DNA of 64,000 nucleotides. Source: Eledone cirrhosa. Lineage: Eukaryota. Where the stretch lies: contig OZ024741.1 in the NCBI GenBank assembly GCA_964016885.1, forward strand, positions 272,676,001 through 272,740,000. The letters are read 5' to 3'. The translations under genes and the position numbers were made by a program. The number at the start of each line of letters is the position of its first letter. Within the stretch, counting starts at the first letter, position 1. This document shows, piece after piece, positions 2,849 to 27,758 of the stretch. Below the pieces are notes generated by a model that saw only the letters and a list, made by a program, of their open reading frames with translations, was not told the DNA's origin and ran no database searches.

Positions 2849-2915
2849 TATTTTATCTGATGAGGACGTACTGTTGAAGTTAACTCAGTACCTCTGAAAT
2901 ATGTATAATAAAATA
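2849..2915 (+). ncRNA. Type I hammerhead ribozyme motif
   Basis: TATTTTAT-CTGATGA-[stem II containing gtactg...cagtac]-GAAA-TATGTA-TA-ATAAAATA. Perfect 8-bp stem I and intact catalytic core. Confidence 0.8.
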
Positions 2916-3161
2916 TACTTGATCACAAGAATATCTACTTTGTTAATATTTTGAATTAATATTATATATATATATATATATATATGCATAAACATGTTTA
3001 CAAACACACCGAGCATTATAATAAATGTTCGGTAAATCCATACGTACATATATATATGTGTGCATGTATGTATATATATATACATACTACTGTACGTCTG
3101 TATACATATATGTATGTACGTATACATACATACACATATATATATATATATATATATGCAT

Positions 3162-3497: not shown

Positions 3498-3650
3498 ATA
3501 TATATATATGTATACACATATACTTAGGTTAAACATTGATGCAATTCAATTCAAGCACTCAACGTACTTTTTCCACATAGGAGTGATGGAGTAAATATTG
3601 AATAAGGAAAAGCGAAGTAGTTTCAGATGTTCAAGTCTTTTAATAATAAT

Positions 3651-3724
3651 GCTGTGATATATATTTCAATGACGACACTGGCCACACTGTTCTGTGTGCG
3701 AGTGTCGTGACATCGTCAGACAGC
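3651..3724 (-). ncRNA. Type I hammerhead ribozyme motif (left arm)
   Basis: Reverse complement of 4976-5049, core intact. Confidence 0.85.
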
Positions 3725-4975
3725 TTGTTACATAATAAGGTTATGTTTCTGAGGCAATCCAAATTGAATCGACATGGGAACGGACGAAGTGTGTGCTTTT
3801 GGGTTCTTCATCCGTTCCCCTGTGAGTACCAATTCACCCCCACCGGTCTGCGCAGCCGCAGGTCCGAAGGAAGTTGACCATTAGCTACCGCAGATTTCAA
3901 CCTAATTCGCTTAGTCAGTTCCCCCTTTCAGCCAAACAATGACCCATTCAGGCCTGTACGATAGTTTACTGCTACCCATCCCGTCTGTGGCAGTCAGCCG
4001 AAAGCCAGAAGGGATGGGAGAGTGTTAGTTTTTATAGGTCACAATACTACCAAGCATGGACAGTACAACTGACCATCAACCCCTAAGAGAAAATATACTT
4101 AATTCTAGGTATCATGGTTTTACATTGGAAGTTATGAGTGAGAGTTGGAAATAAAAATAAAAATTTAAAATCGAAAATCCTAAATCAAATAGAAATTATA
4201 AATTAAAAAATAAAAAAATTAAAAAATTAACAATTAGAAATTAAAAAATTTTTCAAGTGAGAATCCAGATTGAGGTGAGTAAAAAAACATATAGATTGAA
4301 GTGAGTAAATAATATGCAGAGAGATGTTTAAGTAAAAAGTTCTGAAAGGGGTCCCAATGTCACAGTTACACTATCCACATATTGAACGATAGTGCCGTAC
4401 ATTAGAACGGAGGGTAAACTACAGTATTAAAGGCAGTAGTCAATCTGGTAAATAGTCATGATTTCCATCACATGGAACAAATCCCCCCCCCCCAAAAAAA
4501 AAACTGATATAAAGTACACAAACGAAAAGAACCAATAATGAGTACATATATGCAAAATGATCCATATGATTGTCAATTTGTCCATGTATAGATTGAATTG
4601 AGGGGGCTTCTGTTCAAATGCGATTTGGTGCAGGAAAATAGGGGTTCATCTTAGTTTTTGTTTCCGCGTATTTATCCTGCCGAAAGTTATTATTATGTCC
4701 GTCCAGTGTCAGGGGTTTCCATCCCCATGGTAGAGGGAATTTCCTGGTGTAGCTCGTTGTTGGTTCCTCTCTTCTCCACCATATCGGTTACATCATAGAA
4801 CGCTCAACTAATTGGAGCTAATGGTCAACTTCCTTCGGACATGCACCTGTGCAGACCGGTGGGGGTGAATTGGTACTCAGGGGAATGGATGAAGAACCCA
4901 AAAGCACACACTTCGTCCGTTCCCATGTCGATTCAATTTGGATTGCCTCGGAAACATAACCTTATTATGTAACAA

Positions 4976-5049
4976 GCTGTCTGACGATGTCGCGACACTC
5001 GCACACAGAACAGTGTGGTCAGTGTCGTCATTGAAATATATATCACAGC
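4976..5049 (+). ncRNA. Type I hammerhead ribozyme motif (right arm)
   Basis: GCTGT-CTGACGA-[cgacact...agtgtcg stem II]-GAAA-TATATA-TC-ACAGC. Palindromic stem III; predicted cleavage after AUC at 5044. Confidence 0.85.
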
Positions 5050-5077
5050 ATTATTATTAAAAGACTATTATTAAAAG

Positions 5078-5263
5078 GGCGGTGAATTGGCAGTATCGGT
5101 AGAGGGTCGGATGCCATGCTTTGACGTATAGAGTTACGGCCCTTGCCATTCTGAGTTCAAATCCTGCCGAGGTTAACTTTGCCTTTCATCCTTACGGGGT
5201 TGATAAAATAAAGTACCAGTAATGCACTGGGTAATTGCTGGCCTTGTGCCAAAAGTAGAAACA
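5078..5263 (+). mobile_element. tRNA-derived SINE (family B, Meta-domain-like core) with 17-bp target site duplication
   Basis: A/B-box-like head (TGGCAGTATCGG; GAGTTCAAATCC) and core TTTGCCTTTCATCC...GATAAAATAAAGTACCAG. ATTATTATTAAAAGACT is duplicated at 5050-5066 and 5264-5280. Confidence 0.85.
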
Positions 5264-5317
5264 ATTATTATTAAAAGACTTGAACATCTGAAACTACTTC
5301 GCTTTTCCTTATTCGAT

Positions 5318-5321
5318 GCAT

Positions 5322-5359
<38 letters not shown>

Positions 5360-5363
5360 GCAT

Positions 5364-5415
<52 letters not shown>

Positions 5416-5419
5416 TCAT

Positions 5420-5455
<36 letters not shown>

Positions 5456-5459
5456 GCAT

Positions 5460-5509
<50 letters not shown>

Positions 5510-5513
5510 GCAT

Positions 5514-5547
<34 letters not shown>

Positions 5548-5553
5548 ATGCAT

Positions 5554-5587
<34 letters not shown>

Positions 5588-5593
5588 ATGCAT

Positions 5594-5677
<84 letters not shown>

Positions 5678-5735
5678 GCATACACACACATATATATATA
5701 TATATATAAATGCATTCACACATATATATATATAT
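5318..5735. repeat. Compound (TA)n/(CA)n microsatellite
   Basis: Repeated ATGCATACACACA(TA)n blocks. Confidence 0.95.
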
Positions 5736-6019
5736 TAACAAACCACAGACACAAGATAAAATAATGAAATGGATGTATTTAAAAGCTTTTAGACAAAAAA
5801 AAAAAAATATATTGATTTGTTAATTGCTGTATAACAATTGAAATAATACTTAGATAGTACTTAAGATGGGGGGGGGGGGGAGGAGCAATCTATTCCATTT
5901 TGTAATAATTACTTCATAATATAGATAACAAAGATTAAGGAGAACAATAATGAAGAGATTATAATGAGAAGAATGAGACAAATTGATCATTTAGTGTCAC
6001 TTAATGGATTCTTAAAGAA

Positions 6020-6482
<463 letters not shown>

Positions 6483-8400
6483 ATTATTTTAGGCACAAGG
6501 CTAATAATTTTGTGGCAAGGGGAAAGTCGATTAAATTGACCTAGTATGTTACTGGTACTTTATGGCGATTAAATTGATCCCAGTATGTTACTGGTACTTT
6601 ATTAACCTAGAAAGGATGAAAGGCAAAGTTGATCTTGGCAGGATTTTAAATAATTGTTTCTACCTTTGGCACAAGGCCAGCAATTATCCCAGTTTATTAC
6701 TGGTACTTTATTTTATCGACCCTGTAAGGATGAAAGGCAAAGTTAACCTCGGCATGATTTGAACTTAGATCATAAAGGGCCGTAACTCTATGCTGCAAAG
6801 CATGGCATCTGACCCTCTACTGATTCTGATTTAGGCACAAAGCCAACATTTTTGGGGGAAGGGAATTCTTAGCCACTTTCACCTTAGTGGAATGGAAAAT
6901 AAAGTGTATATGAATCAATAGAAGTAGCAATGATATCAAACCCTTTAGCATTTAAACCGGCCGTATTCGGCCAGAATTCTCTCACCTCTTTCTGTTCAAA
7001 CTGACTGTAACTGGTCGCTCATACTCATGTTAAGGTATTTTTCTCAAAATAAATGACATAAAAATCTCGTAGATTCGATATTATGTGAGATAATTATGTT
7101 AGGTAAAGCCTTCACCATGAAAATACAATAGTATATATAGAGTAATGTAAATGCTAAAGGGCTAAAGGGCACAAGGCCAGCAATTACCCCAGTGCATTAC
7201 TGGTACTTTATTTTATTGACCCTGTAAGGATGAAATGCAAAGTTAACCTCGGCAGGATTTGAACTCAGACTGTAAAGGGTCGTAACTGTATGCTGCAAAG
7301 CATGGTGTCCGATCCTCTACCAATACTACCAATCCAATAATAATATCAATCGTTTCTACTTTAGGCACAAGGCCAACAATTTGAAGGGAAGGGGAAAGTC
7401 GATTAAATTGACCCAAGTGCATAACTGGTACATTATTTTATCGACCCGGTAAACATTTTCCATCAACAGTTTCATCACTTTTCCATCTTCATTATTGTCT
7501 TTTTTTAATGTATCATGGATTACTTTATTGATTATAGAAGTAAGTGTAACACAGTTTTTGTTCAATTTATGTGCATATTGTCAATTTACTTTTCAATTTA
7601 CGTATCATATCTATATTCATATATATTTGTGTATAATATCAATATGCCCACTGCAAATGCTAACAGAAAACCACTCGGAGGGCGGTTTTTCTGTTAATAA
7701 TAGAGTTTCTACTTTTGGCACAAGGTCAGCGGTTACCCCAGTGCACCACCGGTACTTTATTTTATCGACCTCATAAGGATGAAAGGCAAAGTTAACCTTG
7801 GCGGGATTTGAACTCATAAAGCAAAGGGCCATAACTATGCTGCAAAGCATGGTGTCCGACCCTCTACCGATACTGCCAAACCACAGCCCTTTTTTCTGCT
7901 AATAATAATAATAATTGTTTCTACTTTTGGCACAAGGCCAGCAATTTGAAGGGAAAGGGAAAGTTGATTAAATGGACCCTAGTGCATTACTGGTACTTTA
8001 ATTTATCGACCCCTTAAGGATAAAAGGCAAAGCTAACTTCTGCAGGAATTGAACTCAGACTATAAAGGGCTATGACTCTGTGCCACAGAGCATGTTGTCT
8101 GATGCTCTATCGATACTACCAATCTACTGCCCTTAATAATAATGATAATAATAATAATAATGATTTCTAGTATAGGCACAAGGCCAGTAATTTGGGAGGC
8201 GGGGAAAGTCGATTAAATCGACCCTAGTACGTTACTAGTACTTTATTTTATCGACCCCGTAAGGATGAAAGGCAAAGTTAACCTCAAGGGGATTTGAACT
8301 CAGATCGTAAAGGGATGTAACTATGCTAGAAAGCATGGCGTCCAACCCTCTACCGATACTGTCAATTCACTGCCCTCATAATAATAATAATAATAATAAT
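6483..8400 (-). mobile_element. Cluster of about 7-9 full or partial family-B SINE copies in the same orientation
   Basis: Recurrent GGCACAAGGCCAGCAAT...CTGGTACTTTATTTTATCGACCC..AAGGATGAAAGGCAAAGTTAACCTCGGCAGGATTTGAACTCAGA blocks separated by (AAT)n. Confidence 0.85.
6941..7161. mobile_element. MITE with 14-bp TIRs (piggyBac-like CCC...GGG ends)
   Basis: CCCTTTAGCATTTA at 6941 and TAAATGCTAAAGGG ending at 7161. Flanks CAAA and CTAA resemble a decayed TTAA. Confidence 0.6.
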
Positions 8401-8660
8401 ACTTTCTTTATTAACCACAAGGGTTGATATACAGTATAACATTAAGGACAGCACATGACAGTACAGGACGGTACAGGATGGTACAAATGGGAATTTCTGC
8501 ATGTAAAAGAAACAAACAAAATTATATATATAAAAAAGAAAAACAAAGGATGTAACAAAAAAATGGAAACAAAGGAGAAATTCCTCAATAGGAGGAAGAC
8601 TTCTGAGGGTGACTCATGGAGAAAGCCCACAAAAAGCCACAGTCACCCTGACTGCGAGGG
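8401..8660 (-). mobile_element. Retroelement 3'-end fragment (second copy at about 12882-12990)
   Basis: CTTTCTTTATTAACCACAAGGGTTGA...ACATTAAGGACAG..TACAAATGGG occurs twice, each time next to an (AAT)n tail. Confidence 0.5.
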
Positions 8661-8663
8661 AAA

Positions 8664-9152
8664 TCATCATCATCATCATCATTTTACGTCCGCTTTTCCC
8701 TGCTTGCAAGGGTGGGATGGGAACTGATTCTGGCTTGATTTCTACAGCTGGATGCCCTTCCTAACACCAACCTCATTTACAGTGAGTGCTGGGTGCTTTT
8801 ATTTCCGTGGCTCCTACACATCCACTTTACAGTGAGTGCTGGGTGCTTTTATTTCCGTGGCTCCTACACATCCACTTTACAGTGAGTGCTGGGTGCTTTT
8901 TTTTCCGTGGCTCCTACACGTCCACTTTACAGTGTGGGCTGGGTGCTTTTTTGCCGTGGCACCTCCACGACCACTTTGCAGTGGAATGATAGGGACCCCA
9001 GTCCTATCATCTCATTTCTACAGCTGAGTAAACTGGAGCAATGTGAAATAAAGTGTCTTGCTCAAGGATACAACACATCACCCGGTCTGAGAATTGAACT
9101 CACAACCTTTCGATTGCAAAGCCAATGCTCTAACCACTAAGCCATGTGCCTC
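8664..9152 (-). mobile_element. Family-A tRNA/RTE SINE with an internal 50-bp tandem expansion
   Basis: Matches 16449-16799. A 50-bp unit (TTTACAGTGAGTGCTGGGTGCTTTT...CCTACACATCCAC) is repeated three times at about 8777-8926. Confidence 0.85.
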
Positions 9153-9299
9153 TAAATAATAATAATAATTTTTTTTGGGGGGGAGGGGGCACTGGAGTTG
9201 ATAAAATGACTTTCTCCGCCTCCCAATAAATTAATAAATTATTTACAACATTATTTGCCAATAATGTGAGGGGCACCACCCAGGTGAAATTAAGGAACA

Positions 9300-10232
9300 C
9301 CATGATAATGATGGTGATGGTGGTGATTGTTGTGGTGGCGATGTTTGTGGAAGTTATGATGGTGGTTGTGGTGGTAGTGATAGTGGGGATGGTGATGATG
9401 GTGGTTGTGGTGATGATGATGGTTGGGGTGGTTGTGTTGGTGATGATGGCGATGATGATGGTTGTGGTGGGTGTGATGGTGGTGGTGGTGATGATTGTGG
9501 TGGTGGTGGTTACGATGGTGATGTTGGTGGTTGTGGGGGTAGTGTTGATGGCGGTGGTGATAGTGGTGAGTGTGGTGGTGGTGATGGTGATGATGGTGGT
9601 TGTGGTGATGATGATGGTTGGGGTGGTTGTGTTGGTGATGATGGCGATGATGATGGTTGTGGTGGGTGTGATGGTGGTGGTGGTGATGATGGTGGTTGGG
9701 GTGGTTGTGTTGGTGATGATGGTTGTGGTGGGTGTGATGGTGGTGGTGGTGATGATTGTGGTGGTGGTGGTTGCGATGGTCATGTTGGTGGTTGTGGGGG
9801 TAGTGTTGATGGCGGTGGTGATAGTGGTGGGTGTAGTGGTGGTGATGGTGATGATGGTGGTTGTGGTGATGATGGTGGTTGTGTTGGTGATGGTGATAGT
9901 TGTGGTGGTGGTGATGATGGTAGTGGTGGTGATGATGATGGTTGTGGTGGTGGTGGTTGTGATGATAATAGTTGTGGGTGTGGTGGTGGTGATGATGGTT
10001 GTGGTTGTGGTGGTGATGATAGTTGTGGTGATGGTGGTTGTGGTGGTGGTGGTGATGATGATGGTTGTGGTGATGATATGGTTGTGGTGGTGGTGATGGT
10101 GGTTGTGGTGTGGTGGTGGTGATGATGGTGGTGGTGGTGATGATGGTTGTAGTTGTTGTGGTGATGCTTGTGGTGGTAGTGGTGATGATGGTTGTGGTAG
10201 TGCTGATGATTATGGTTGTGGTGGTGGTGATT
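9300..10232. repeat. Degenerate (GGT/GAT/TGT)n trinucleotide low-complexity tract
   Basis: Direct inspection; gives poly-V/M, poly-T and poly-H ORFs. Contains internally duplicated blocks. Confidence 0.9.
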
Positions 10233-10269
10233 TGGGAGCATGGAGTATAGAAGGAGTCTGAGGAAGCCA

Positions 10270-11530
10270 TCACAGTGAAGGTTGAAATCAGGTTATGAAA
10301 TACAGAACTGGAACTTCAGTTGTGGACTGGACAAAGATGGAACTGCAGAAACTCAACAGAAACTCTAGAAAGCTGCTGTGTATGTGTTGAGCCCACCATT
10401 TGAAAACTGATATCAACCGGTTGTAGTTGAGGAGAAATCAGAGCTGAAGAGGTTTAACTAGTGTGGAAGATTTTCTACTGATGAAATAAAGCAGCTTACT
10501 TCATCATTTGTAGAATTGCACAGAAACATTAGGAAAGGTAGTAAAGAACAAAGGATGAAGTCTGGATAGAGTGGTAGAAAGGATAAAAATAAAATTAAAA
10601 GAGACTATTTTGAACCCTTACCTATGGTCATGAATCCTAGGTAATGACTGAAAGGATATGATCGCGAATACAAGCAGCTGAAATGGGGTTTCTCTGAAGG
10701 GTTTTTGGCATAATGTTACTCGATAGAGTGTGTAGTTTGGAGATCAGAGAGTCACTCCAGGTAGAGCGACTACTTCTTCGAATTGAGGGATCACAGTTCT
10801 GATACTATGGGCATGTGGTTAGAATGTCTCAGGCAAGAATTGCTGGACAGATTTTACGGGCAAAATCAACTGTCAGGAGACTCAGGGGTAGACCCCGAAC
10901 AAGATGGTTGGATAGCATCCATGAGTTTGGCTGGTCATGCTTGGGGATCCAGCTGGATCAGTTGGAGACGGTTGCTTCTGACAGGACCTGCTGGAAGGAG
11001 TGTTTGAGGACTCTACCCCCAACAACCCTCTCAGGAATAAGTGGGTGATGAAGAAGAAGAAAATGTTGAACAGATTGAAGAGAAACCTTTGAAAGGTCAG
11101 TTTCAGAAATCCACTGAAGATGTACATGGGAAAAACCCTGGGCTTCGTTGAAAAAGAGAATAATTGAAAAAAGAAAGAGAATTTTATTACAGCAACTGAA
11201 GATTAAACACTGTAAACAAACAACTTGAAGAAATATGTTTATAGGGATGAGGTGACAGCAAAATGTAGAATATAAGGAATTTAGGATGAAACAGTAGCTC
11301 ACATTGTGGAAGAATGTCCCAAATTTGACCATGGATAATATAAATATAAGAAATGGAGACATATTAAGTTATGAAAGTTTTGCACTGAAAGTTTTATCAG
11401 AAATGGAGATTTGAAGCAGAAAGAATGTGATGCCCCATGTTTGTTCAGGGACAATATAAGAAGTAAAAATGTATGATGAAGTTATGTAAATTTTAAACTA
11501 GAAGAAATGGGGTTTGAAGTAGAAAGTATG
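10270..11530 (+). mobile_element. Degenerate R4/Dong-clade LINE fragment, interrupted by an RTE insertion
   Basis: Translates with stops to VVDWTKMELQKLNRNSRKLL..AHHLKTDINRL.LRRNQS.RGLTSVED. After 11060 it reads AKCRI.GI.DETVAHIVEECPK, a CCHC knuckle remnant typical of RLE-type LINEs. Confidence 0.7.
10600..11061 (+). mobile_element. Second RTE-family LINE 3' fragment with (GAA)n tail
   Basis: LTYGHES.VMTERI.SRIQAAEMGFL...YYGHVVRM...GRPRTRWLD...DRTCWK, then GATGAAGAAGAAGA. Distinct from the family at 1-2727. Confidence 0.8.
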
Positions 11531-11539
11531 TGATAGAGT

Positions 11540-12275
11540 TGTAGTGACCTACATTCCGAGGGCTCATAGATACATTCTCTGTTCGTTGTTTGGCTCAGTT
11601 CAGCCAATCGCCGCCAGCGTAGGAGAATGTATCTCGACACGCCCTGAGGGAAAAATTCCCACGTCAATTCAGAAATCTCTCTCTTGCAGTTTGACCATGT
11701 TAAGGTAAACACCACTTCTTCTTTTGCTCCGCAAGCACAAACAATATGTAACGGTAAGATTTGCACTTTGGCCTGTCGGCCTTCTTTGGGCCTGGCACAA
11801 TGCCACATTCCTTTAATAACCTTATATTGTTAATTTTAACTACCCAATTCAACAAACATTACTTTGTGATTAACTTTCTCTCTTTCTCACTACAATAAAT
11901 AAACATACATTCATCATAATTATCCGTGTTGATATTCCCATCATTATTATTGGATTGGCAGTATCGGTAGAGGGTCGGATGTCATGCTTTGATGCATAGA
12001 GTTACGGTCCTTTCCCGCCGAGGTTAACTTTGCCTTTCATCCTCATGGGGTCGATAAAATAAAGTACCAGTAATGCACTGGGTAATTGCTGGCCTTGTGC
12101 CAAAAGTAGAAACAATTATTATATCTTTCTGCTAAAATGGTGACTCGACGTGAGTCTTGGTGATATCAATTATTAGAAACAACAGCTAAAATGGTGACCC
12201 CGACGTGATATTTTAGCTGTTGTTTCTAATAATCGGAGAATGTATCTATGAGCCCTCGGAATGTAGGTCACTACA
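11540..12275. mobile_element. Non-autonomous DNA transposon with perfect 40-bp TIRs and TGT...ACA termini (Ginger-like)
   Basis: TGTAGTGACCTACATTCCGAGGGCTCATAGATACATTCTC at 11540-11579 and its exact reverse complement at 12236-12275. Flanks GAGT and CAGT. Contains a family-B SINE at about 11952-12120. Confidence 0.75.
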
Positions 12276-12467
12276 CAGTTATTAGGTAGGCATTACGTTT
12301 CGCGGTTGGACTCTTTTTGCTATAAGATCATGCCGGATTTTGTAACATGTTTTTGCTAATTGCTTGCAACCACTAGCAATAGGTGCCACAGATTCATCTG
12401 TTTTATGGCACATTCTTCAGAGTGGGGGAGCAGTTTTGATAATAATAATAATAATAATAATAGTTAC

Positions 12468-12667
12468 TGATTTAGGCACAAGGCCAGCAATTTGGGAGGA
12501 TGGGAAAGTCGATTAAATTAACCCCAGTGTATTACAGGTGCTTAATTTATCGACCCCGTAAGGAAGAAAGGCAAAGCTAACCTTGGTGGGATTTGAAATC
12601 AGAACTTAAATGGCCGTAGCTCTATGCTGTTGTCCGATAGTCTACTGATACTGCCAACCCACTGCCT

Positions 12668-12706
<39 letters not shown>

Positions 12707-12853
12707 TGTTTCTACTTTTGACACAAGGCCAGCAATTACCCCAGTGCATTACTGGTACTTTATTTTATCGACCCTGTAAGGATGAAAGGCAAAGTTAACC
12801 TCGGCGGGATTTGAACTCAGACCGTAAAAGAGCGTAACTCTATGCTGCAAAGC
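12468..12853 (-). mobile_element. Two family-B SINE copies
   Basis: Same core as 5078-5263 in reverse orientation, separated by (AAT)n. Confidence 0.8.
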
Positions 12854-12992
12854 AATAATAATAATAATAATAATAATAATGCTTTCTTTATTAACCACAA
12901 GGGTTGACACAAAGTAGACATTAAGGACAGTACAGGACAATACAAATGGGCATTTCTGCGTGTAAAAAAAAATAACAACAGAGTATATGACA

Positions 12993-13025
<33 letters not shown>

Positions 13026-13280
13026 CAATACATCAAAGAGAAAGGAGTAAAATAATCAATGAAATATATATGAAATAATATTTATTTATTGTTTTTGATT
13101 TGTTACGTTGTTTAAAATTATGGATAAGTAAAATAATAATAGGGATAAGTAAAATAACAATAGGGAGTGTCATACAGTTTACAATAATAGGCTATTTCAA
13201 AACAATGGATCTCGCTTCACTAAAAGTTATCCTTTAATTTCTCTGATGTCCTCAGCATCTTTCATCCGCCCATTATAATG

Positions 13281-15103
<1,823 letters not shown>

Positions 15104-15150
15104 TAGTCTGTGTGTAATCATCAAGTCTCATGAACCCATGAAAAATAAAC

Positions 15151-15449
15151 ATGAATTTCAAACTACCTTCGTTTATGCGTAATGAGAGAACAGGAGATGG
15201 AAATACACCTGTAAAATCCTGGATACATTATCTCTCGGATAAAATCCACTTTGAGAAGCAACATATTGGCAAAAGTTTCGGGAAGGAATTTCATACAGAT
15301 GATAAAAATGATGTTGATCCTCAAAGACAACTTATCAAAGAGGAGAAAAATTACAACGAATGTACCAAAAGTCTTTTACTGAACTTTTCAAGTCACACCA
15401 GTCTCCATGGAATAAAAAATATAACTGATGGCAAGAACACTCTACTAAG
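15151..15449 (+). CDS. DEG/ENaC (ASIC/FaNaC-superfamily) channel subunit, first visible coding exon
   Basis: [13 protein letters not shown] is the conserved pre-TM1 HG motif. Ends AG|GTAAAT in phase 2, compatible with the exon at 26995. The ATG at 15151 is the presumed start. Confidence 0.85.
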
Positions 15450-15689
15450 GTAAATTCTTCATAACTTATTCTTTATTTATTTCCTTCTTTCTCTCTCTCT
15501 TTCTTTTTCTTCTTTCCTTTCTTTTATTGTTTGCTTGTTTGTTTGTTTGTTTCCTTTCTTTTATTCTTTCTTTGTTTCTTTCCTTTTTTTCATGGCCGTG
15601 TTGTAAAAAGCATTTGTTTTTCCACCACCTAGCTTTGGGTTCAGTCCCACTGAGTTACAACACATTCAGCAAGTGTCTTCTACTAAATA

Positions 15690-16425
15690 TATATATGTGT
15701 CTTAGTATCATTCAGCAACACCTTTGTCAGCCGCTCTTCAGCTATCTATTTAAGGCTGTATATAGCTATGGTGCAGCCACACTTAGAATGTGCATCACCA
15801 GTCTCGAACCCCTATCTTGCTCAGAACATTGACCTCCTGGAAACTGGCATCTACCATACTCTGAACGCCTTGCTTCCCTGGGCATGGATATATTGAAGCT
15901 CCGACGTCTGGCAACTGACTTGGTAAACACCCACAAAATTATTAACCATCTTGCCAACATCAATCCTGAGCACCTTTTCGATTTCCATGGGTCTAACACT
16001 TGTGGGCATGCCTATAAAGTCAGAAAACAGCACAGCTCCCATGACTTTCGGAAACATTTTTTCATACTCAGAGTTGCTGAAGCATGGAACAAACTACCTG
16101 CATCAGTTGTTAGCTGTCGAGACACTGCATCCTTTAAAACCTCCATGCTTCCTGAAATTCGCCAACGCTACACCTGATATCCCTCCTCCATACACGCGCA
16201 CGCATGTATTTCATGACTCATACACTGTTCATTTTCCTGACATTTGAATATTATTTTCACTTTGCCTTTCATCCTTACATGGTCAATAAAATAAAGTACC
16301 AGTAATGTACTGGATAATTGCTGGCCTTGTGCTAAAAGTAGAAACAATTATTTTATGTACTATAACTATACATGCACCTTTGATGAGTTGTAGTGCACCT
16401 GAGCACTGTACACAATAATTTCATT
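15690..16425 (+). mobile_element. CR1/L2-group LINE 3' fragment (SINE piece inserted at about 16256-16352)
   Basis: LKLRRLATDLVNTHKII...TCGHAYKV...RKHFFILRVAEAWNKLPASVV...SFK is the typical CR1-group ORF2 C-terminus. Confidence 0.8.
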
Positions 16426-16448
16426 CTATATAATATATATATATATAT

Positions 16449-16799
16449 GGAGGCATATGGCTTAGTGGTTAGAGCATTGGCCTTGCAATCGAAAGGTTGT
16501 GAGTTCAATTCTCAGACCGGGTGATGTGTTGTTTCCTTGAGCAAGACACTTTATTTCACATTGCTCCAGTTTACTCAGCTGTAGAAATGAGATGATAGGG
16601 ACTGGGGTCTCTATCATTCCACTGCAAAGTGGTCGTGGAGGTGCCACGACAAAAAAAGCACCCAGCACTCACTGTAAATAAGGTTGGTGTTAGGAAGGGC
16701 ATCCAGCTGTAGAAATCATGCCAGAATCAATTCCCGTCCCACCCTTGCAAGCAGGGAAAAGCGGACGTAAAATGAAATGATGATGATGATGATGATGAT
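16449..16799 (+). mobile_element. Family-A tRNA-derived SINE, full length
   Basis: A box TGGCTTAGTGG, B box GAGTTCAATTC, central CCTTGAGCAAGACACTT. The 3' half matches the RTE 3'UTR at about 606-755. (GAT)n tail. Confidence 0.88.
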
Positions 16800-17230
16800 A
16801 TATAATACCGTAAGAAGAGATGAACACAGATATATAACTATATGTGTTCAAATCATAAGGGACAGAGACCATCAGGGTAAAGAAAATATTGACTAAAATA
16901 GTATGGTTCACAGAACCCAATGAAAAGGATTAATTGAGAAAAACGAACCTACCATGATAACTATCATGTACCCGGGCAGTTTATGGATAGAACTGTTTCG
17001 CAAAATTCACTGAAGAGAATTATTGGGGTTGTGCTTCTCAACGGGTACCTACATCAATATTCACTTCACTACTATGTTTGGTAGAAGACTAAATAACACG
17101 CGTGTTAAAAGAGAGAGCACATAGAAAGAATGTGCCGGGAAGAACGAATAGAACATAAGGTTACAAGAAAAATAGCAGCCGGGCCCATTCGATATATCAA
17201 AGCTCTACAAAAGCGATGGAGCAAAATTAT

Positions 17231-17428
17231 AAAAAGTATATATTGAGTTAAAATCTCATAATAGTCCCCTATAATTAAAATAGTTCAAGGAGAAAAATTT
17301 TTCTGAGCCTTATTTTGTTCTTTTTTGTCTCTCCTTACAGTATTCTAAGGATCGGAAAAATTGTTCTCCTTGAGCTATTTTAATTATAGGGGACTATTAT
17401 GAGTTTTTAACTCAATATATATTTTATA
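17231..17428. repeat. ~75-bp imperfect inverted repeat (hairpin) abutting (TA)n(CT)n
   Basis: TATATTGAGTTAAAATCTCATAATAGTCCCCTATAATTAAAATAGTTCAAGGAGAA versus TTCTCCTTGAGCTATTTTAATTATAGGGGACTATTATGAGTTTTTAACTCAATATA. Confidence 0.85.
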
Positions 17429-17468
17429 TATATATATATATTTCTCTCTCTCTCTCTCTCTCTCTCGC

Positions 17469-17543
<75 letters not shown>

Positions 17544-17555
17544 CTATATATAGAA

Positions 17556-18200
17556 GCACACAAGCACACAAACATACATATCTTTACTTTCTTTATTTCA
17601 ATAGAAAATCTGAATTCTGACACCCCAGCGAACTAACCATATTCACTGAACCAGAACAATTCTCCCATCCCATTTCTCTTGACCATTATCTTTTGCTTGT
17701 CATAAAATTCTCTAAAAAGGCTACAGAATAGATTTCCAAATACGGGCGCGAGATTTAATGAAAATTTGTTCACGTGACAGCAATAATTTCATTTATAACC
17801 AATCAAATTACGTTTATTAAAAAAAGCCTTCGTGAGCCCCCTTTTTTAAGTAAAAAGAAATTCAAACACACACACACACACAACACATAAGCGCACAAAT
17901 AAACATACACATCTTTACTTTCTTTATTTCAATAGAAAATCTGAATTCTGACACCCCAGCGAACTAACCATATTCACTGAACCAGAGCAATTCTCCCATC
18001 CCATTTCTCTTGACCTTTATCTGTTGCTTATCATAACATTCTCTAAAAAGGCTACAGAATAGATTTCCAAATAAGGGCACAAAATTTAATGAAAACTTGT
18101 TAACGTGACAGCAATAATTTAATTTATAACCAATCAAATTACATTTATTAAAGAAAAAGCCTTCGTGAGCCCTTTTTTTTAAGAAAAAGAAATTCAAACA
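17556..18200. repeat. Tandem duplication with 331-bp period
   Basis: TCTTTACTTTCTTTATTTCAATAGAAAATCTGAATTCTGACACCCCAGCG at 17581 and 17912. Confidence 0.9.
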
Positions 18201-18580
18201 CTCATATATGAAAAAACAACCTGAGCCCCCCCTCCCCGTTTGAAGAACTTTGTAACCCGAACTTGCGCGAAATTTATTATAATTATTGACCAACCAATCA
18301 AATTACTTCTCTAAAAACCTGGCTTTTCCAGCCACTTTTTTCCATATAAAACAAGTAACATTCAAAGACCAACCAGATGTGAGAAAAACCACAGACCCTC
18401 CATCTCAACTCTACTTTTGAAAAGCAGAAGAACTGCGAAACCGGTAAAGGAACCAAATGAATATATATATATTTAAAAAAATAAGACTCCAGTTGCATTT
18501 TCGATTTCATCTTTTTTTCTTTATACTTTCACTCGTGTAGGACACCTCGGTTATTTTTCATTTTGTAAAAAAACCCTCAC

Positions 18581-18657
<77 letters not shown>

Positions 18658-18780
18658 GGAGGTGAGTTTTATTGTAGTACAATAAAGCAATGCAGATATC
18701 GGATAAGAAGCACTCTACAGTTTGTAGGACTGGAGTATACATAATATATAAGATCAAAAGATGGTTAAAGGAGTTCCATG

Positions 18781-18851
18781 TATTTTATTATGCGCATTTC
18801 AAAAACAAACATCATCATGCAATAATATTTGTGTTTTCATCAGATAAAACA
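18781..18851 (-). ncRNA. Type I hammerhead ribozyme motif (left arm)
   Basis: Reverse complement of 19463-19533. Confidence 0.8.
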
Positions 18852-19462
18852 GGAGGACATGATATGAAGGCTAAAAAACACTTGTGGATAGTGCAGTTTT
18901 AAATCAGCATATGAGAAGTAATTTTAGATTGATGTGTGATATTGGGAAAAATATTTTATTTAGAGGGGGGTGGGGGTGGAAAGGATGAAAAAAAAATAAA
19001 GAAATTTCAATAATACTTGTAAACATACACACATTTTTTTGACGTTAGAATATTCATCCGCAACTTATTATTCTATTCTCTCTATCATCAAACTTTTTAA
19101 TCTCAATACATATTAACTCCCTCTCCTTCTTCGTACATATTTTTCCCTTCGTTAATTTTCAAATTCTTTTAATTTATACATTATCTTCCAACGGTTTTCA
19201 ACCTCTCTATGTAAAACAATATATCTTTTCTCAGTTATAAAAACTATCTCTTTCTCTCTATCACCCATCTCTCTATCTCCACCTTCACTCTCATCTCCTC
19301 CCCCTTTTTTTTTTCTTTTTTTTTTTCATCCCCCCCCCCCCCCCCCCTCTCTAAATAAAATATTTTTCCCAATATCACACATCAATCTAAAATTACTTCT
19401 CATATGCTGATTTAAAACTGCACTATCCACAAGTGTTTTTTAGCCTTCATATCATGTCCTCC

Positions 19463-19533
19463 TGTTTTATCTGATGAAAACACAAATATTATTGCATGAT
19501 GATGTTTGTTTTTGAAATGCGCATAATAAAATA
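19463..19533 (+). ncRNA. Type I hammerhead ribozyme motif (right arm)
   Basis: TGTTTTAT-CTGATGA-[acaaatattatt...gatgatgtttgt]-GAAA-TGCGCA-TA-ATAAAATA. Palindromic stem III TGCGCA. Confidence 0.8.
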
Positions 19534-19563
19534 CATGGAACTCCTTTAACCATCTTTTGATCT

Positions 19564-19642
<79 letters not shown>

Positions 19643-19834
19643 AAAATTGAACGGGAACAAAACAGAGAGGCAGTACAAACAAAGGTTTATTAGTTTCACG
19701 CTCTTGAGAGTGGGGGGGGGGAACGACATTTCGGACATAAGCCCTTCTTCAGGTGAAAAGTGTGTGGGAAGAGAGTTCAAAGGGTGTGTAGGGGTGGTGG
19801 CGGGTGGAGTGGGGAGAGGGAGACGGGGTGTCCG

Positions 19835-20318
19835 AGCAGGTTTTCACCTAATGTGGGCCCTAGGGGATGAAGAAAATTAATTCGTTTTATGTGCATAATA
19901 TGCCTTGAAATTTCGGGAAAATCGGCTAGACGTAACGCCTCAAAAAAGCCCTAAAAAGCTGAAAAGAGGAAGTTTTTCACCTAATGCGGGCCCTAGGCCA
20001 TAAAAAAGTTGGATTTTCTTTGCTCACAGTATGAAGAAGAGACTGACTAATACATAGTTACAATTTCAAGGAAATCTGTCTAACGTAACGCCTAAAAAAC
20101 CCCCTAAAAAGCTGAAAAAACGCAGTTTTTCACCTAATGCTGGTCCTAGGGGATCAAAAAGTTGAATTTCTTTATGTGCATAACACTCCCTGAAACATAA
20201 GTAATACACATGTAAAGTTTGAAAAATATCGGTAGGGTACTTCTCGAGTTTTAGGGATTTAAACTCACACACACGCACACACACGCACACACACACACGC
20301 ACGCACACACACACACAC

Positions 20319-20374
<56 letters not shown>

Positions 20375-20405
20375 ATACACACATCCTCAGTTTTATATAT
20401 ATAGA
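19835..20405 (-). mobile_element. Helitron-like non-autonomous element, 5' part
   Basis: The minus strand begins A|TCTATATATATAAAACTGAGG followed by (GT)n. Internal ~140-bp subrepeats TTTTCACCTAATGCGGGCCCTAGG. The 3' end is not seen. Confidence 0.45.
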
Positions 20406-20424
20406 TGATGATTATATATATATA

Positions 20425-21411
20425 TCTGTATATATATAAAATTAAGTATGTGTGTGTGTGACTGTGTATTACCTATAGGGGCCTACATCTTACGACTGAT
20501 TTTCATGAAACTTTACAGGCTCATAGATTACTCATCGGGGAGTATTTTCTATATATCAGTGTATCGTTTCTTTTATTCCGGGGTTATTCTGCAGATAAAA
20601 ATCAATAAGGGGGTCACCTTTTTTTAGGTATCGAAAAATAAGACTTTTGGCACTAGCTCCCACATTTGCCACCGATTTCGTTCAAATTTTAAAGCAAAAT
20701 TGTAATGGCTTTATATTTTGCATTTGTTGTTCAGGGATGGCGTGGCAGCCGCTTAAATATTCAAGAATACAACTTTTAGACTCAAATTTCTACTTTTTCG
20801 GTCTAGTTTTCACATTAATCAACCTACTTTGTTCAAATTTTACACTACGCTAGATCTGATTATTTCACGTCTTAAAGTGGCTTTACATTTTGGATATTTT
20901 GTTCAGGAACGGCGTGGCAGCCGCTTAAATATTTGAAAATACCACCTTTTCGCTCAAATTTCCGCCTTTTCGGCACTAGCTCCCAGATTTTTCAACCGAT
21001 TTCGTTCAAATTCGAAACTTCGGCTCCACCTCACACACAAATCAATTTATTTGGTTCAACTTTTATACTAAGATAGAACCTATCATTGCATATCTTATAG
21101 ATGGTCAAAGGTAAAACGATGGCCACTGACATCGTCTGAGCTTTTAGTTGTGTATTTGAGAACTCATCGGTTTCCAATCAAGAAGAGTGAGGAAATTTGG
21201 CTTAGTGTTAGAGGTCATTACCTCCCTCCCCCAGCATGCCCCTTCGTCAGTCACCCGCGTTTCTCAGTGATAGAGGTCATCACCACCCTCCCCCGCATGA
21301 CCTGTGTGTGGCCATAAATGAGTTATCGAGAAGCAGTCGCTAAGATCAACACCTTTTCATCAAAGCAGATATTATTTTACCTACCCAGGCAACGCTGGGT
21401 ACTGCTGCTTG
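20425..21411 (+). mobile_element. Helitron-like non-autonomous element
   Basis: 5' A|TC start, subterminal hairpin TACCCAG-GCAACG-CTGGGTA at 21382-21401, 3' end CTTG|T (degenerate CTAG), internal subrepeats. Confidence 0.6.
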
Positions 21412-21414
21412 TAT

Positions 21415-21495
<81 letters not shown>

Positions 21496-21731
21496 CTATA
21501 TATATATATTTCGTTTCTGAATTTGTTTAGCAAGATTCTTTATCTGAAATCGTGTGTTGAAACCGATATTGTTATACTTTGGGAGGGTCATGTTGCCAAT
21601 AAGAAACACACGCACCAGTTGCTTTCACTTCAATTTATTATATATTTATAAATTTATAAATTTACAAATTTACAAACTTATAAATTTCTGGTTGGTTGGT
21701 TGGTTCCACAACCAGATAGTTGTTTATATAT

Positions 21732-21776
21732 AGTCATAGTCCTTTCGTCACACACTCTGTGACCTCTTCAGTGACT
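21732..21776 (-). ncRNA. Type I hammerhead ribozyme motif in the PLE 3' pLTR
   Basis: Reverse complement of 25645-25689, about 280 nt downstream of the ORF stop. Confidence 0.75.
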
Positions 21777-22055
21777 GGGGATTCCTTTCTTTGTTTCTGT
21801 GCCTTTCCTTTCTTCTATCCTACGCCATTTTGTTTCTGTGTGTGTGTTGTGTGCTCAGTTTGCGCATGCGCCACATCCGGGTGTCTGTGTGTGTTTGTGT
21901 TCATTTATCTATTTGTTTATTTATTTATTTATTTATTGTTGGTTGGTTGTTTGTTCTATGTGTGTGTGTGTGTTTTCATTTTGTCCTGTGTGTGTTTTCA
22001 TTTTGTCCTTAATTGTAAGTTGTTTGTTCTATGTGTGTGTGTGTTCATTTTGTCC

Positions 22056-24380
22056 TTAATTGTAAGTTGTGATGTTGCTGTTCCACTCATATTTTCTATT
22101 TAATTTTGGTTTTAATTCTTTTATGCTTACTGCCTCTGTAATTTGCCTAAACATTGCGTCTTTTCTGTGTGTGGATTCTATTTTTATTTCTATGCTCTCT
22201 AATCTACCCCTGTGTTCTATCTTAGCATGTTGGTAGAGCACAGATGATTCTTTATTATCTTGGAGGTCTCGCCAGTGTTCATTTATTCGTTCCCCTATAC
22301 TACGAGCTGTCTCACCTATGTACACTATATTTTTGTTTCTACATTGTCCTTCAGTACATCTTATGCTATACACTACATTTCTAGTTTTACAGTTAATATG
22401 GGGGCTTATTTTACAGGTTATACATTTCTTATCTATACATGAGGGTCTTTGGAACGGGTATGTCTTGCTAATAAGTGTTTTTACGGAGGTACCAGGTCTT
22501 TCTACTATCCTAATATTGAGATTATGTTTATTTAGGGCCCTTCTAAATTTGTAGGCTAGTTCGCCTCTAGGGGTTGTATTGATGAACATTACACTCTGGT
22601 ATTTATTGCTATCATACCATGAGTTTATTCTATTGGCCATGTTACTAGTTCTTTCTATTCTATTCCAAAATTTGCTCCTATACAAGGGGCAGGTCCCATT
22701 TATGTCATTATTTACCATTTTTTCCCATTTGGTTCTGGCTCCTTTATACACTCTGATCCTATCTCTCTGATTGTAGCCAGAGAACTGCATACGGTGGATG
22801 AAGTGTTGTATGTGTCTCTCTAGTTCTTCGGGGTTGCACATGCGGGACACATTTCTCATCACCCGTACCAAATCCGCAATCAGTATGTTGATTTTGGTAT
22901 GGTCCGAAATGGCCGAGTTTCGGTGGATCAGATGTTTGGAAGTCATGGGTTTGGCATAATGGGAATGGAGGATTTGTTTTTGGTTGTTAATGGTATCTAA
23001 CCAGAGCTCTGTGTCTAGTACAGGTAATCGATGGTTGGGGTGTCTACTTGGGTAGTCTATAGTAACTCTAATGCTCTGGTGGATGGAGTTTGCTATTTGC
23101 TGGATGCTTTCCATTGTGTTTTTCTCTAGTTCCTGACTGTTCTTTAGTGGGGGTGTCTTAACTACGATGTTTATATCATCTACGTAGCGGGAGTACATTA
23201 TCAGGGTTAAGCTGTCTTCTAATTGTTCATTAAGTTTTTGTTTAAGTCTACTGTCCCACCATACCATGAATAAGTTAGCTATGTCGCCTGCAATGCTAAC
23301 ACCAATGGCTGCTCCTTCCTCTTGGGTATATGTTTTACCATTAAATTTGAACATATGTTCCTTAAGGGTTAATTTTATGCTGGCCCCTACCGCATGTGCA
23401 ATCATTTTCTTCAGTTCATCGTGGTTTTCGGATGTCCGTATGGCTCTGGTCCACCCGTTCCATCTATCTGTGTGGGTTTTCTTGGCCATTGAGGTAATGG
23501 TAGGTGGTCTGCCTCTTGCTGGTCTTGTAGGGCACAGGTTGCTAAGGTCATAAGTGTCTAGGTAACTATTACTATGGGTAAGCTTAAGTAGAAGTCCCAG
23601 ATCACTGGTATCAATCCCACGGAACTCAACCTTGCTCTCGCTGATCATTTCTACGCATTTCTCCACAGCAAAATCCACGTCAATAGATGGATACAGGGAC
23701 ACAACATCCATACTGCCTATTATGCAGTTTGTTAGGTCCCCAGATCGGTTACCCGCGCCGATTCTGCTGAGGAGGTCCTCCGTGCTGTCACACACATCTG
23801 GGGACATCTCAATGATGGGGCGTATGATTAGGGAGAGGAAGTAGGACAGTCTGTAGTTACTAGCAATGTTAGCCCCACAGACTGGCCGTGTTGGTGGTCC
23901 CGCAACAGGGTCCCAGCCCATTTTATGGTCTTTTCGAAGCCCATACAACGCCGGCACGTCATTGTTCCAGGCCTGGAAGTTGTTGGCAGTCCTTTTGTTG
24001 GGCTGCATTATATTCGTCCACATCACCATATGGGCATTGAGGGCTTTTTCTCTATCCTCATGCTCCTGTGGTGTTACCTCTCTTGTGTTAGTGATGTGGG
24101 GTTGCATTGCCTGGATGTAGTTTGGCAGGCTGTCAACCGACATTCTGCCAGACTTGTCTGTTGGAAAACATGCTATCTCTCCATTACGCGAGCGCTGCAT
24201 GAGCTTACGCAAGCCATTTGCAGATTCTTCTCCCAGTTGCTGGGCCTCTATTCTATTATGCTTCTTGCTATACTGTTCTATAATATTTCTAAGTTCGGAT
24301 TTAGCTATACTAAATTGTGCTTCTGTTTGTTCGTCGACCTGCGACGGCAACTGCGTGCGTTTGTTAAATGGCAAAGTCAT
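22056..24380 (-). CDS. Penelope-like reverse transcriptase / GIY-YIG endonuclease (Naiad/Neptune-type Cys linker)
   Basis: PTDKSG, LYGLRKDHK, RPVC, SMDVVSLYPSI, QEEGAAIG, SRYVDD, LPVLD; linker CxxxxCxxC (CIDKKCITC); VVYSIRC...YIGETAR..ERINEH...EAV.I...KPKLN. The true N-terminus probably extends upstream. Confidence 0.93.
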   Translation of the reverse strand: MTLPFNKRTQLPSQVDEQTEAQFSIAKSELRNIIEQYSKKHNRIEAQQLGEESANGLRKLMQRSRNGEIACFPTDKSGRMSVDSLPNYIQAMQPHITNTREVTPQEHEDREKALNAHMVMWTNIMQPNKRTANNFQAWNNDVPALYGLRKDHKMGWDPVAGPPTRPVCGANIASNYRLSYFLSLIIRPIIEMSPDVCDSTEDLLSRIGAGNRSGDLTNCIIGSMDVVSLYPSIDVDFAVEKCVEMISESKVEFRGIDTSDLGLLLKLTHSNSYLDTYDLSNLCPTRPARGRPPTITSMAKKTHTDRWNGWTRAIRTSENHDELKKMIAHAVGASIKLTLKEHMFKFNGKTYTQEEGAAIGVSIAGDIANLFMVWWDSRLKQKLNEQLEDSLTLIMYSRYVDDINIVVKTPPLKNSQELEKNTMESIQQIANSIHQSIRVTIDYPSRHPNHRLPVLDTELWLDTINNQKQILHSHYAKPMTSKHLIHRNSAISDHTKINILIADLVRVMRNVSRMCNPEELERHIQHFIHRMQFSGYNQRDRIRVYKGARTKWEKMVNNDINGTCPLYRSKFWNRIERTSNMANRINSWYDSNKYQSVMFINTTPRGELAYKFRRALNKHNLNIRIVERPGTSVKTLISKTYPFQRPSCIDKKCITCKISPHINCKTRNVVYSIRCTEGQCRNKNIVYIGETARSIGERINEHWRDLQDNKESSVLYQHAKIEHRGRLESIEIKIESTHRKDAMFRQITEAVSIKELKPKLNRKYEWNSNITTYN

Positions 24381-24684
24381 GGCGTGGACTCGTCGTAGGT
24401 CGAATGATTTATCGGAGGGGTTATAAAACGGAGAGTTCCAGGCTGCTGCTTTATGTGTACTAGTGCTATTATTATTGTTAGTTGTGTTGTTTCTATTTCT
24501 ATTTCCACCAACAGCCTCATGGTTGTTTTACTCCTGTCTCTTTCCACTGGCTCAATGTTGTTATCTACCCTATTTTGTGTGTCTGTGTGTTTGTCTTGGT
24601 TATTCTCTTTGTCCTTAGTCTCCCATGTCCTTTTCCTTTTAATCCTATTACGTTCTCTTATTTCTCTGATTTCTGTGCTACTGT

Positions 24685-25365
24685 CAATCAGAGAGATAGG
24701 ATCAGAGTGTATAAAGGAGCCAGAACCAAATGGGAAAAAATGGTAAATAATGACATAAATGGGACCTGCCCCTTGTATAGGAGCAAATTTTGGAATAGAA
24801 TAGAAAGAACTAGTAACAAGGCCAATAGAATAAACTCATGGTATGATAGCAATAAATATCAGAGTGTAATGTTCATCAATACAACCCCTAGAGGCGAACT
24901 AGCCTACAAATTTAGAAGGGCCCTAAATAAACATAATCTCAATATTAGGATAGTAGAAAGACCTGGTACCTCCGTAAAAACACTTATTAGCAAGACATAC
25001 CCGTTCCAAAGACCCTCATGTATAGATAAGAAATGTATAACCTGTAAAATATGTACATAAGATGTACTGAAGGACAATGTAGAAACAAAAATATAGTGTA
25101 CATAGGTGAGATAGCTCGTAGTATAGGGGAACGAATAAATGAACACTGGCGAGACCTCCAAGATAATAAAGAATCATCTGTGCTCTACCAACATGCTAAG
25201 ATAGAACACAGGGGTAGATTAGAGAGCATAGAAATAAAAATAGAATCCACACACAGAAAAGACGCAATGTTTAGGCAAATTACAGAGGCAGTAAGCATAA
25301 AAGAATTAAAACCAAAATTAAATAGAAAATATGAGTGGAACAGCAACATCACAACTTACAATTAA
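24685..25365 (+). pseudogene. Inverted duplicate of the PLE ORF 3' end, frameshifted by a net 37-bp deletion
   Basis: ORFs 24482+ and 25051+ reproduce NQRDRIRVYKG...NITTYN. The segment SPHINCKTRNVVYS is lost at about 25052. Confidence 0.88.
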
Positions 25366-25644
25366 GGACAAAATGAACACACACACACATAGAACAAACA
25401 ACTTACAATTAAGGACAAAATGAAAACACACACAGGACAAAATGAAAACACACACACACACATAGAACAAACAACCAACCAACAATAAATAAATAAATAA
25501 ATAAACAAATAGATAAATGAACACAAACACACACAGACACCCGGATGTGGCGCATGCGCAAACTGAGCACACAACACACACACAGAAACAAAATGGCGTA
25601 GGATAGAAGAAAGGAAAGGCACAGAAACAAAGAAAGGAATCCCC

Positions 25645-25689
25645 AGTCACTGAAGAGGTCACAGAGTGTGTGACGAAAGGACTATGACT
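25645..25689 (+). ncRNA. Type I hammerhead ribozyme motif in the inverted PLE arm
   Basis: AGTCA-CTGAAGA-G-GTCACA-GAGTG-TGTGAC-GAAA-GGAC-TA-TGACT. Confidence 0.75.
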
Positions 25690-26030
25690 ATATATAAACA
25701 ACTATCTGGTTGTGGAACCAACCAACCAACCAGAAATTTATAAGTTTGTAAATTTGTAAATTTATAAATTTATAAATATATAATAAATTGAAGTGAAAGC
25801 AACTGGTGCGTGTGTTTCTTATTGGCAACATGACCCTCCCAAAGTATAACAATATATATATATATTTCTATTATAAACCTAATTAATATACACCTTACTC
25901 TTAGATTTTACAAATTATTATAATTTTTTTTTTTAAATTTAGTTAACCTATAATTAGTATTTTACTGCAGGGAACTTCATAATTTTATTTCCCTCTTACA
26001 ACTCTCTTTTCCTAAAATTAATATCTAAAA

Positions 26031-27499: not shown

Positions 27500-27507
27500 G
27501 TAAGTTG

Positions 27508-27564: not shown

Positions 27565-27596
<32 letters not shown>

Positions 27597-27756: not shown

Positions 27757-27758
27757 TC

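Follow-up and report, generated by a model that had tools for sequence, protein, structure and literature searches.

Penelope-like elements (PLEs) insert as inverted, head-to-head copies with a tail at one end, form partial tandems and prefer (TA)n targets, as relevant passages of PMC8557442 (including its Fig. 2 legend) and PMC3846280 describe. How the tandem and inverted structures and the tail arise is listed among the open tasks in PMC8557442, and PMC11167929 gives only a partial answer. According to the passages there on purified Poseidon PLE protein, the enzyme nicks and extends both strands, and two internal start sites define the tail. It binds RNA downstream of these sites, is predicted to be dimeric and can dispense with ribozyme cleavage. 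Animal retrozymes of the non-LTR type (LTR, long terminal repeat) have been proposed to depend on PLEs (relevant parts of PMC7229834 and bioRxiv 10.64898/2026.07.22.740005). The subject of this study is a set of three fold-back elements, elements 1 to 3, in a window of 64,000 nucleotides from Eledone cirrhosa (contig OZ024741.1, forward-strand positions 272,676,001 to 272,740,000, assembly GCA_964016885.1). All positions below are counted within this window.

The reading proposed here, held at a probability of about 0.6, is that element 1 is copied by a reverse transcriptase (RT) and endonuclease of the Hydra clade of PLEs. This enzyme would recognise two short boxes and start copying just ahead of each; all three elements are PLE insertions in TA repeats. 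The parts not found in the literature searched are the box, a rule by which 3' ends are paired, and a 1.3-kb partner without an open reading frame (ORF).

The original prediction described three TA-flanked elements with inverted arms that each hold a hammerhead core and of which one is tailed; this layout was confirmed. The paired arms lie at 3634-3886 and 4816-5066 in element 1 (96% identity, plus 3597-3650 with 5264-5317), at 18736-19004 and 19312-19578 in element 2 (97%), and at 21566-22773 and 24685-25855 in element 3, where they differ by 3 mismatches and 37 gap positions. Unpaired left tails measure about 75 nt, 82 nt and 56 nt, respectively, and TA-rich sequence flanks all three. The tail is indeed on the left arm throughout the window, but this is not a rule, since the outer end of two-armed element-1 copies elsewhere in the genome lies on the left in 11 and on the right in 17 of 28. 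A fold-back layout with a one-sided tail is ordinary, already published PLE structure. Partial tandems, inverted 5'-truncated copies and an optional tail were found for all three elements, as was a pseudo-long terminal repeat (pLTR) with a type-I hammerhead. All three are Penelope-like retro-insertions in TA repeats, not miniature inverted-repeat transposable elements (MITEs).

Only element 1 of the three is non-autonomous. Its long arm (3520-4821, minus strand) is one complete ORF-less unit of about 1302 nt, which ends at the outer of two alternative 3' ends (3520). It is collinear with genomic copies at 85-92% identity, and in tandem copies this end joins the head. The tail (3520-3596, minus strand) lies between the inner and the outer 3' end, as shown by the clustering of ends in 149 arms. 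Box 1 (ACTC...GAGT-GCT; 3554-3584, minus strand) is found just behind the inner end. Box 2 (GCTC...GAGC; 4799-4818, minus strand) forms the unit head, which in tandem copies is just behind the outer end. The short inverted arm (4816-5317, plus strand) ends at the inner 3' end and meets the long arm head to head with a 6-nt overlap. Tandem, truncated and inverted forms all occur, and one array has three or more head-to-tail units with a period of 1297 nt.

The absence of coding capacity, already suspected in the original prediction, held up. All six frames of the unit are closed, and the best tblastn match to PLE protein has an E value of 0.6. A search of the 3.0-Gb genome gave 2343 first-look candidates, which are not copy numbers; the best 40 candidates per DNA search were scored. 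The loci described here are best-scoring hits rather than a random sample. No RNA data set with element 1 was listed in a sequence search, which gave four contig sets of unknown kind. In none of 150 element-1 or sister-family loci (overlaps included) is a PLE ORF continuous with the unit. An ORF piece is present in 13 of them, but it is inverted, lies at a distance or is set apart by a TA tract. The search for a coding parent yielded only the ORF-less sister family (25 loci fetched, L263-L287), whose hammerhead is 78-87% and whose body is 67-70% alike. This older family has the hammerhead shape, box 1 and mixed ends in common with element 1. With the coding Hydra families element 1 shares the two boxes as a cis signal; no extended pLTR homology to these families was found.

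The clue to the box was a resemblance between the head of element 1 and the sequence that follows the tail of element 2. The box has the form RCTC-loop-GAGY-RCT and, in element 1 as well as in coding Hydra families, follows each of the two alternative 3' ends at a distance of no more than about 20 nt. A pattern search placed it behind both 3' ends of elements 1 and 2 and of E4, a fourth PLE fragment in the window, and gave no match in 5 shuffles of 715 kb. Copies end 0-20 nt ahead of each box. Among the 149 arms of element 1, 59 end at the inner site and 60 at the outer site, 30 read through, and none ends in between. For element 2 (n=41), 24 ends are inner, 14 outer, 2 read-through and 1 other; for E4 (n=37), 23 are inner, 11 outer, 1 read-through and 2 other. 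The outer end of E4 was first inferred from box 2 in a single locus (L173), and was then found in 11 copies.

The box was also looked for in coding elements. For this, 70 loci were chosen by Hydra protein similarity alone, made up of the 30 best hits and 40 taken from 150 listed hits for their lower identity and intact start. Within 300 nt upstream of the ORF start, 54 of the 70 carry the box in sense and 4 in antisense, against a shuffle mean of 0.76 and maximum of 3. The box is present in all 6 clusters with at least two members, and in 30 of 45 loci when the family from which the pattern was partly drawn is left out. Box 2 lies 34-55 nt upstream of the start codon, and box 1 about 100-140 nt upstream. 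Among 208 distinct box strings, the outer pair is A-T in 79, G-C in 24, G-T in 15 and A-C in 2. Published Hydra consensus sequences (File S7 of PMC8557442) were inspected by eye, and of the five whose ends were examined, four have the box. It occurs twice in Hydra-1_Ajap, and again in Hydra-2_Ajap and in the record that precedes Hydra-1_Obim (by file order, Hydra-2_Amil). At its 5' end, Hydra-1_Crog has a box with a changed pair (GCCC/GGGC), and in Hydra-1_Obim the box is degenerate. The box-bearing consensus sequences come from coral, sea cucumber and Crog. A metagenome scan found no Hydra relatives.

The second line of evidence is the pairing of ends. Two-armed insertions of element 1 combine one inner with one outer end in 28 of 28 cases (p 4e-9 against independent choice). 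Mixed ends were likewise seen in 8 of 9 insertions of element 2 (one more unclassified), 2 of 2 of E4 (one more unclassified), 4 of 4 of the sister family (by eye) and 5 of 5 of element 3, whose copies were counted where they occurred in loci of other searches. Two of the four queries favour tailed copies, which should enrich outer/outer pairs; none was seen for element 1. The two arms of an insertion also resemble each other. They diverge by 3.3% within an element-1 insertion (26 of the 28 had enough overlap) and by 5.1% between insertions, and 55 minor variants are common to both arms where 20 are expected, a count found in 0 of 2000 shuffles.

These observations suggest a mechanism. A two-subunit complex of the Hydra RT/endonuclease, presumably a dimer, would bind box 1 and box 2 and would nick the self-complementary (TA)n target on both strands. 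On one strand, cDNA would then be primed at the inner site, on the other at the outer site, and the two cDNAs would be joined head to head. An inverted repeat with a one-sided tail would follow from inner and outer priming on opposite strands. Element 1 would be mobilised in trans, through an RNA form, and judging from its boxes and hammerhead shape the likely mobiliser is a Hydra-clade enzyme rather than one from the neighbouring element-3 family. A wider proposal is more tentative, at slightly less than even odds. Here, a duplicated RNA signal, conserved across corals, molluscs, echinoderms and arthropods, would dock two RT/endonuclease subunits on one RNA, so that both strands of the target are primed at two fixed sites. 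It would thereby cause the one-sided tail and the inverted repeat, which have long lacked an explanation. The two boxes alone would let unrelated non-coding RNAs spread as Penelope parasites resembling short interspersed nuclear elements (SINEs).

Several points weigh against copying by way of two boxes. The hairpins predicted for the boxes are weak (z -0.04 to -1.25), and for this reason the box may work through its primary sequence, at the DNA level or as a promoter element. The element-3 family follows the rule of one inner and one outer end yet lacks such a box, which makes the box clade-specific. Because no coding family with an element-1-like pLTR was found, the case for the partner is built on the box and on the shape of the hammerhead. 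One copy of element 2 (L007) has two outer ends. Arm similarity could stem from a shared source locus or from later gene conversion. Junction microhomology is modest, with overlaps of at least 2 nt in 10 of 27 junctions against a null of 17%, and gaps in 7. In vitro, no difference between the strands in the RT start was observed, according to the relevant part of PMC11167929. Finally, the box counts are phylogenetically non-independent and come from best-scoring rather than random loci.

Element 2 had also been taken for a non-autonomous element, and this did not survive. Its inverted arm (18654-19004, minus strand) ends at the outer end, with a tail at 18654-18735 and box 1 at 18709-18736. 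The sense arm (19002-19573, plus strand), which ends at the inner end, is the 3' untranslated region (UTR) and pLTR of a coding Hydra-clade PLE, and is 94.6% identical to positions 513-1074 of the region behind the ORF in locus L063. The genome search for element 2 gave 3149 first-look candidates, and pieces of a Hydra ORF (at least 80% identity) were present in 23 of 29 homologous loci. A GIY-YIG endonuclease end lies upstream of what had been called the spacer, copies L003 and L027 read through the tail into the ORF start, and longer stretches around relatives show the order pLTR-ORF-3'UTR-pLTR as well as tandems. Because copies continue into a coding PLE ORF, element 2 is a truncated coding PLE; of the two short elements described as non-autonomous and mobilised by a Penelope enzyme, only element 1 remains as such, probably with the Hydra-clade enzyme.

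The parent ORF of element 2 has a DKT motif, an RW motif, a CxCx5C linker, and CxxC and CxH motifs around the end of the endonuclease. Read in translation against section 11 of PMC8557442, the DKT motif, the CxCx5C linker, the lack of CCHH and the (TA)n target place this parent and E4 in the Hydra clade. Assignment to Naiad was rejected by the C-terminal endonuclease and by the motifs that point to Hydra. An in-frame TGA (L003 and L062) was considered as selenocysteine and rejected; arginine stands there in L027 and L063, so it is a mutation. Long insertions rich in Asn, Thr and His lie between RT and endonuclease in some Hydra ORFs (L061, L063, L241, L248, L256), and resemble the N-rich inserts reported for rotifer PLEs. 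In L241 and L256 the Hydra frames are uninterrupted, at 861 and 894 amino acids.

The hammerheads were sought with a custom type-I descriptor. It gave six cores, one per arm and all reading outward: 3719-3656 (minus) and 4981-5044 (plus) in element 1, 18843-18789 (minus) and 19471-19525 (plus) in element 2, and 21771-21737 (minus) and 25650-25684 (plus) in element 3. A seventh, at 2857-2907 (plus), had been overlooked before. The first 31.7 kb, block-shuffled 30 times, gave no match in any of the shuffles. The cores had been called intact; each arm does have one, but in element 1 stem II is closed by U.U rather than by a pair. Rfam listed no hammerhead at E<=1. The left-arm motif of element 1 (3651-3724, minus strand), with a predicted cut after 3656, folds with z = -3.05. 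By eye, a pyrimidine mismatch at the fourth stem-II pair is seen both in element 1 and in Hydra-family hammerheads. Stem changes within families are mostly one-sided or CpG-like, and stems of different families are wholly different, though the scan itself demanded pairing. The hammerhead is likely not needed for insertion. At least a dozen additional distinct type-I hammerhead families were seen in the flanks of the loci, several with a long stem II and a palindromic stem III.

It is unlikely that one outer-primed cDNA folds back and primes itself, with the endonuclease trimming the second arm at the inner site and the boxes acting as DNA cleavage marks. Such folding would account for the single tail per insertion and for the similar arms, and a few copies have near-palindromic junctions (L099, L111, L135). 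Self-priming was also put forward for rotifer PLEs in the relevant part of PMC3846280, and the tail is needed for recognition by the Drosophila Penelope endonuclease (as cited in PMC11167929). However, most copies have two 5' breakpoints hundreds of bases apart, either arm may be the longer, one-armed copies end at the inner or the outer site, and box 2 lies outside any inserted copy, so that it is readable only in the template. A simple form of twin priming, in which the next upstream unit provides the site of the second primer, was rejected, since long arms often extend beyond that site. A SINE in one arm was likewise rejected as proof of two templates. The SINE-like repeat in question, of about 200 nt and with an (ATT)n tail, was found as 21 independent inserts among about 149 arms, at one hot spot of element 1 just 3' of the hammerhead (for example L032, L044 and L048). 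In the window it splits the right arm (5067-5263, plus strand, with target duplication). All 21 inserts have the same 3' junction, and their variable 5' ends and duplication lengths mark them as later, independent insertions.

Three further explanations concern what element 1 is. That it is a rolling-circle retrozyme, in which the hammerhead cuts multimers, monomers circularise and the circles serve as templates for any PLE RT, must be judged quite unlikely. The 1297-nt array does consist of tandem units each with a type-I hammerhead, and a sister family with a body only 67-70% alike has retained the hammerhead core. A palindromic stem III would suit dimeric cleavage, and dimeric minimal hammerheads in pLTRs are described in the relevant part of PMC4209133. 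Yet none of 144 5' breakpoints falls at the predicted cut (6 lie within 1155-1180, a background-like number), the closing position of stem II is U.U, tandems occur among coding Hydra copies as well (L061), and the unit of 1302 nt exceeds the monomers of about 300 bp (51-972 bp) that have been reported. Circles carrying both boxes would be compatible with copying by the Hydra-clade enzyme. The chance that element 1 is the very long UTR of an unsampled coding PLE is small. Element 2 proved to be just that, some Hydra 3'UTRs here exceed 1.3 kb (L256, L241), and only the best 40 candidates were scored per DNA search; on the other side, the unit closes on itself, with the tail end directly joined to the head in 30 read-through arms, and 0 of 150 loci are continuous with a PLE ORF. 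A classification of the short elements as foldback elements or as MITEs of DNA transposons deserves almost no weight. Long terminal inverted arms in TA targets would fit it. Arm lengths and junctions nevertheless differ in every copy, and element 2 belongs to an RT-coding element; target duplications are unreadable inside (TA)n. At 27 places found with a hammerhead-only query and sorted by eye, there are 12 two-armed copies, 8 with one truncated arm, 3 direct partial tandems and 4 complex forms. The expectation of variable inversion breakpoints was also borne out, since the 144 distinct 5' breakpoints span the whole element-1 unit. Five of the 144 lie exactly at the head, adjacent to box 2 (window 4821, position 1 of the unit). 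They may point to a transcript start, or to copying being halted by a bound protein.

Element 3 is a coding PLE of a clade other than Hydra, and as originally predicted it alone of the three has the RT/GIY-YIG ORF. This ORF (22056-24527, minus strand) measures 823 amino acids from stop to stop and has a Cx4Cx2C linker of the Nematis/Neptune type. Pfam finds RVT_1 (E 3e-4) and GIY-YIG (E 1.5e-3) in it, both below the curated cut-off; a single ORF with PLE RT and GIY-YIG endonuclease characterises both this element and the parent of element 2. By eye, the short linker spacing resembles the Nematis rows in Fig. S2 of PMC8557442, and on this spacing the clade would be Nematis or Neptune. The 3'UTR and pLTR (21510-22055, minus strand) end at the outer end with a tail at 21510-21565, and the inverted arm (24685-25855, plus strand) runs from ORF residue 586 to the inner end. 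The head of the family, seen in locus L108, is missing here, so this copy is 5'-truncated. L108 itself (reverse strand, 648-1092) holds a 444-nt ORF-less tandem unit in which an element-3-family head is joined to its pLTR. It is a retrozyme-sized deletion derivative.

The Hydra-type fragment E4 (882-1540 and 2723-2964, plus strand) carries the seventh hammerhead core, and had about 2100 first-look candidates. It is split by a 3' fragment resembling a long interspersed nuclear element (LINE) at 1541-2722, which has (GAT)n as its terminus, and positions 1-880 hold another copy of this LINE end. Two opposed copies of a composite repeat are present at 8679-9158 and 16444-16775; its head is tRNA-like (27-28 bits for Rfam tRNA, under the cut-off), and it terminates in (GAT)n. 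ARAGORN found no tRNA gene. In one copy, 50-nt internal duplications at 8810-8890 fit the box pattern, which is probably a coincidence. An exon-like frame at 26948-27769 (plus strand) matches the amiloride-sensitive sodium channel family (E 1e-13 for Pfam ASC). From 31740 to 63300, a satellite of more than 30 kb, with 15-nt units and higher-order structure, fills the window's second half.

In the literature searched, which lay outside Repbase and Dfam, neither the box with its end-pairing rule nor a 1.3-kb ORF-less Hydra partner is described; Repbase may already hold element 1. The main text of PMC8557442 contains no occurrence of "hairpin" or "stem-loop", and its relevant passages include neither the two boxes nor ORF-less Hydra partners. 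The Hydra-clade PLEs described in that paper are like the parent of element 2 in motifs, canonical hammerhead and (TA)n targets, but their tails measure 30-40 nt compared with 56-100 nt here. Among the closest known systems in its relevant passages are the non-autonomous Chlamys elements such as MRC1, ORF-less PLE partners that like element 1 have pLTRs, head-to-tail insertions and a preference for microsatellites. Elements of the MRC1 type are green algal, mostly lack a hammerhead and have 3' sequence in common with their partner, whereas element 1 shares only a box of about 20-30 nt and the hammerhead shape. The retrozymes of animals, as far as the sources cited above describe them, are also non-coding, with type-I hammerheads and tandem units. 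Element 1 differs from them in its 1.3-kb length, in being mostly dispersed, in being truncated and inverted like a PLE, and in that no pLTR homology to a coding partner was found.

The canonical PLE structure, as given in relevant parts of PMC3846280, PMC8557442 (Fig. 2) and, for Poseidon (PAc), PMC11167929, has an inverted 5'-truncated copy, an optional tail, partial tandems, two RT starts and extension of both strands, all of which are found alike here. The differences are that the one-sided tail is near-obligate (28/28), and that a conserved box accompanies each start. A defined signal of about 20-30 nt behind each start, together with a strict end-pairing rule, makes the question of PLE structure experimentally addressable. 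The box is also a diagnostic for assigning ORF-less repeats to a PLE partner, which avoids filing them as MITEs. In L1 twin priming, two target-strand primers lead to an inversion that is joined by microhomology. Here, by comparison, both primers start at defined 3' sites about 70-100 nt apart, and the product is therefore an inverted duplication with both 3' ends facing outward.

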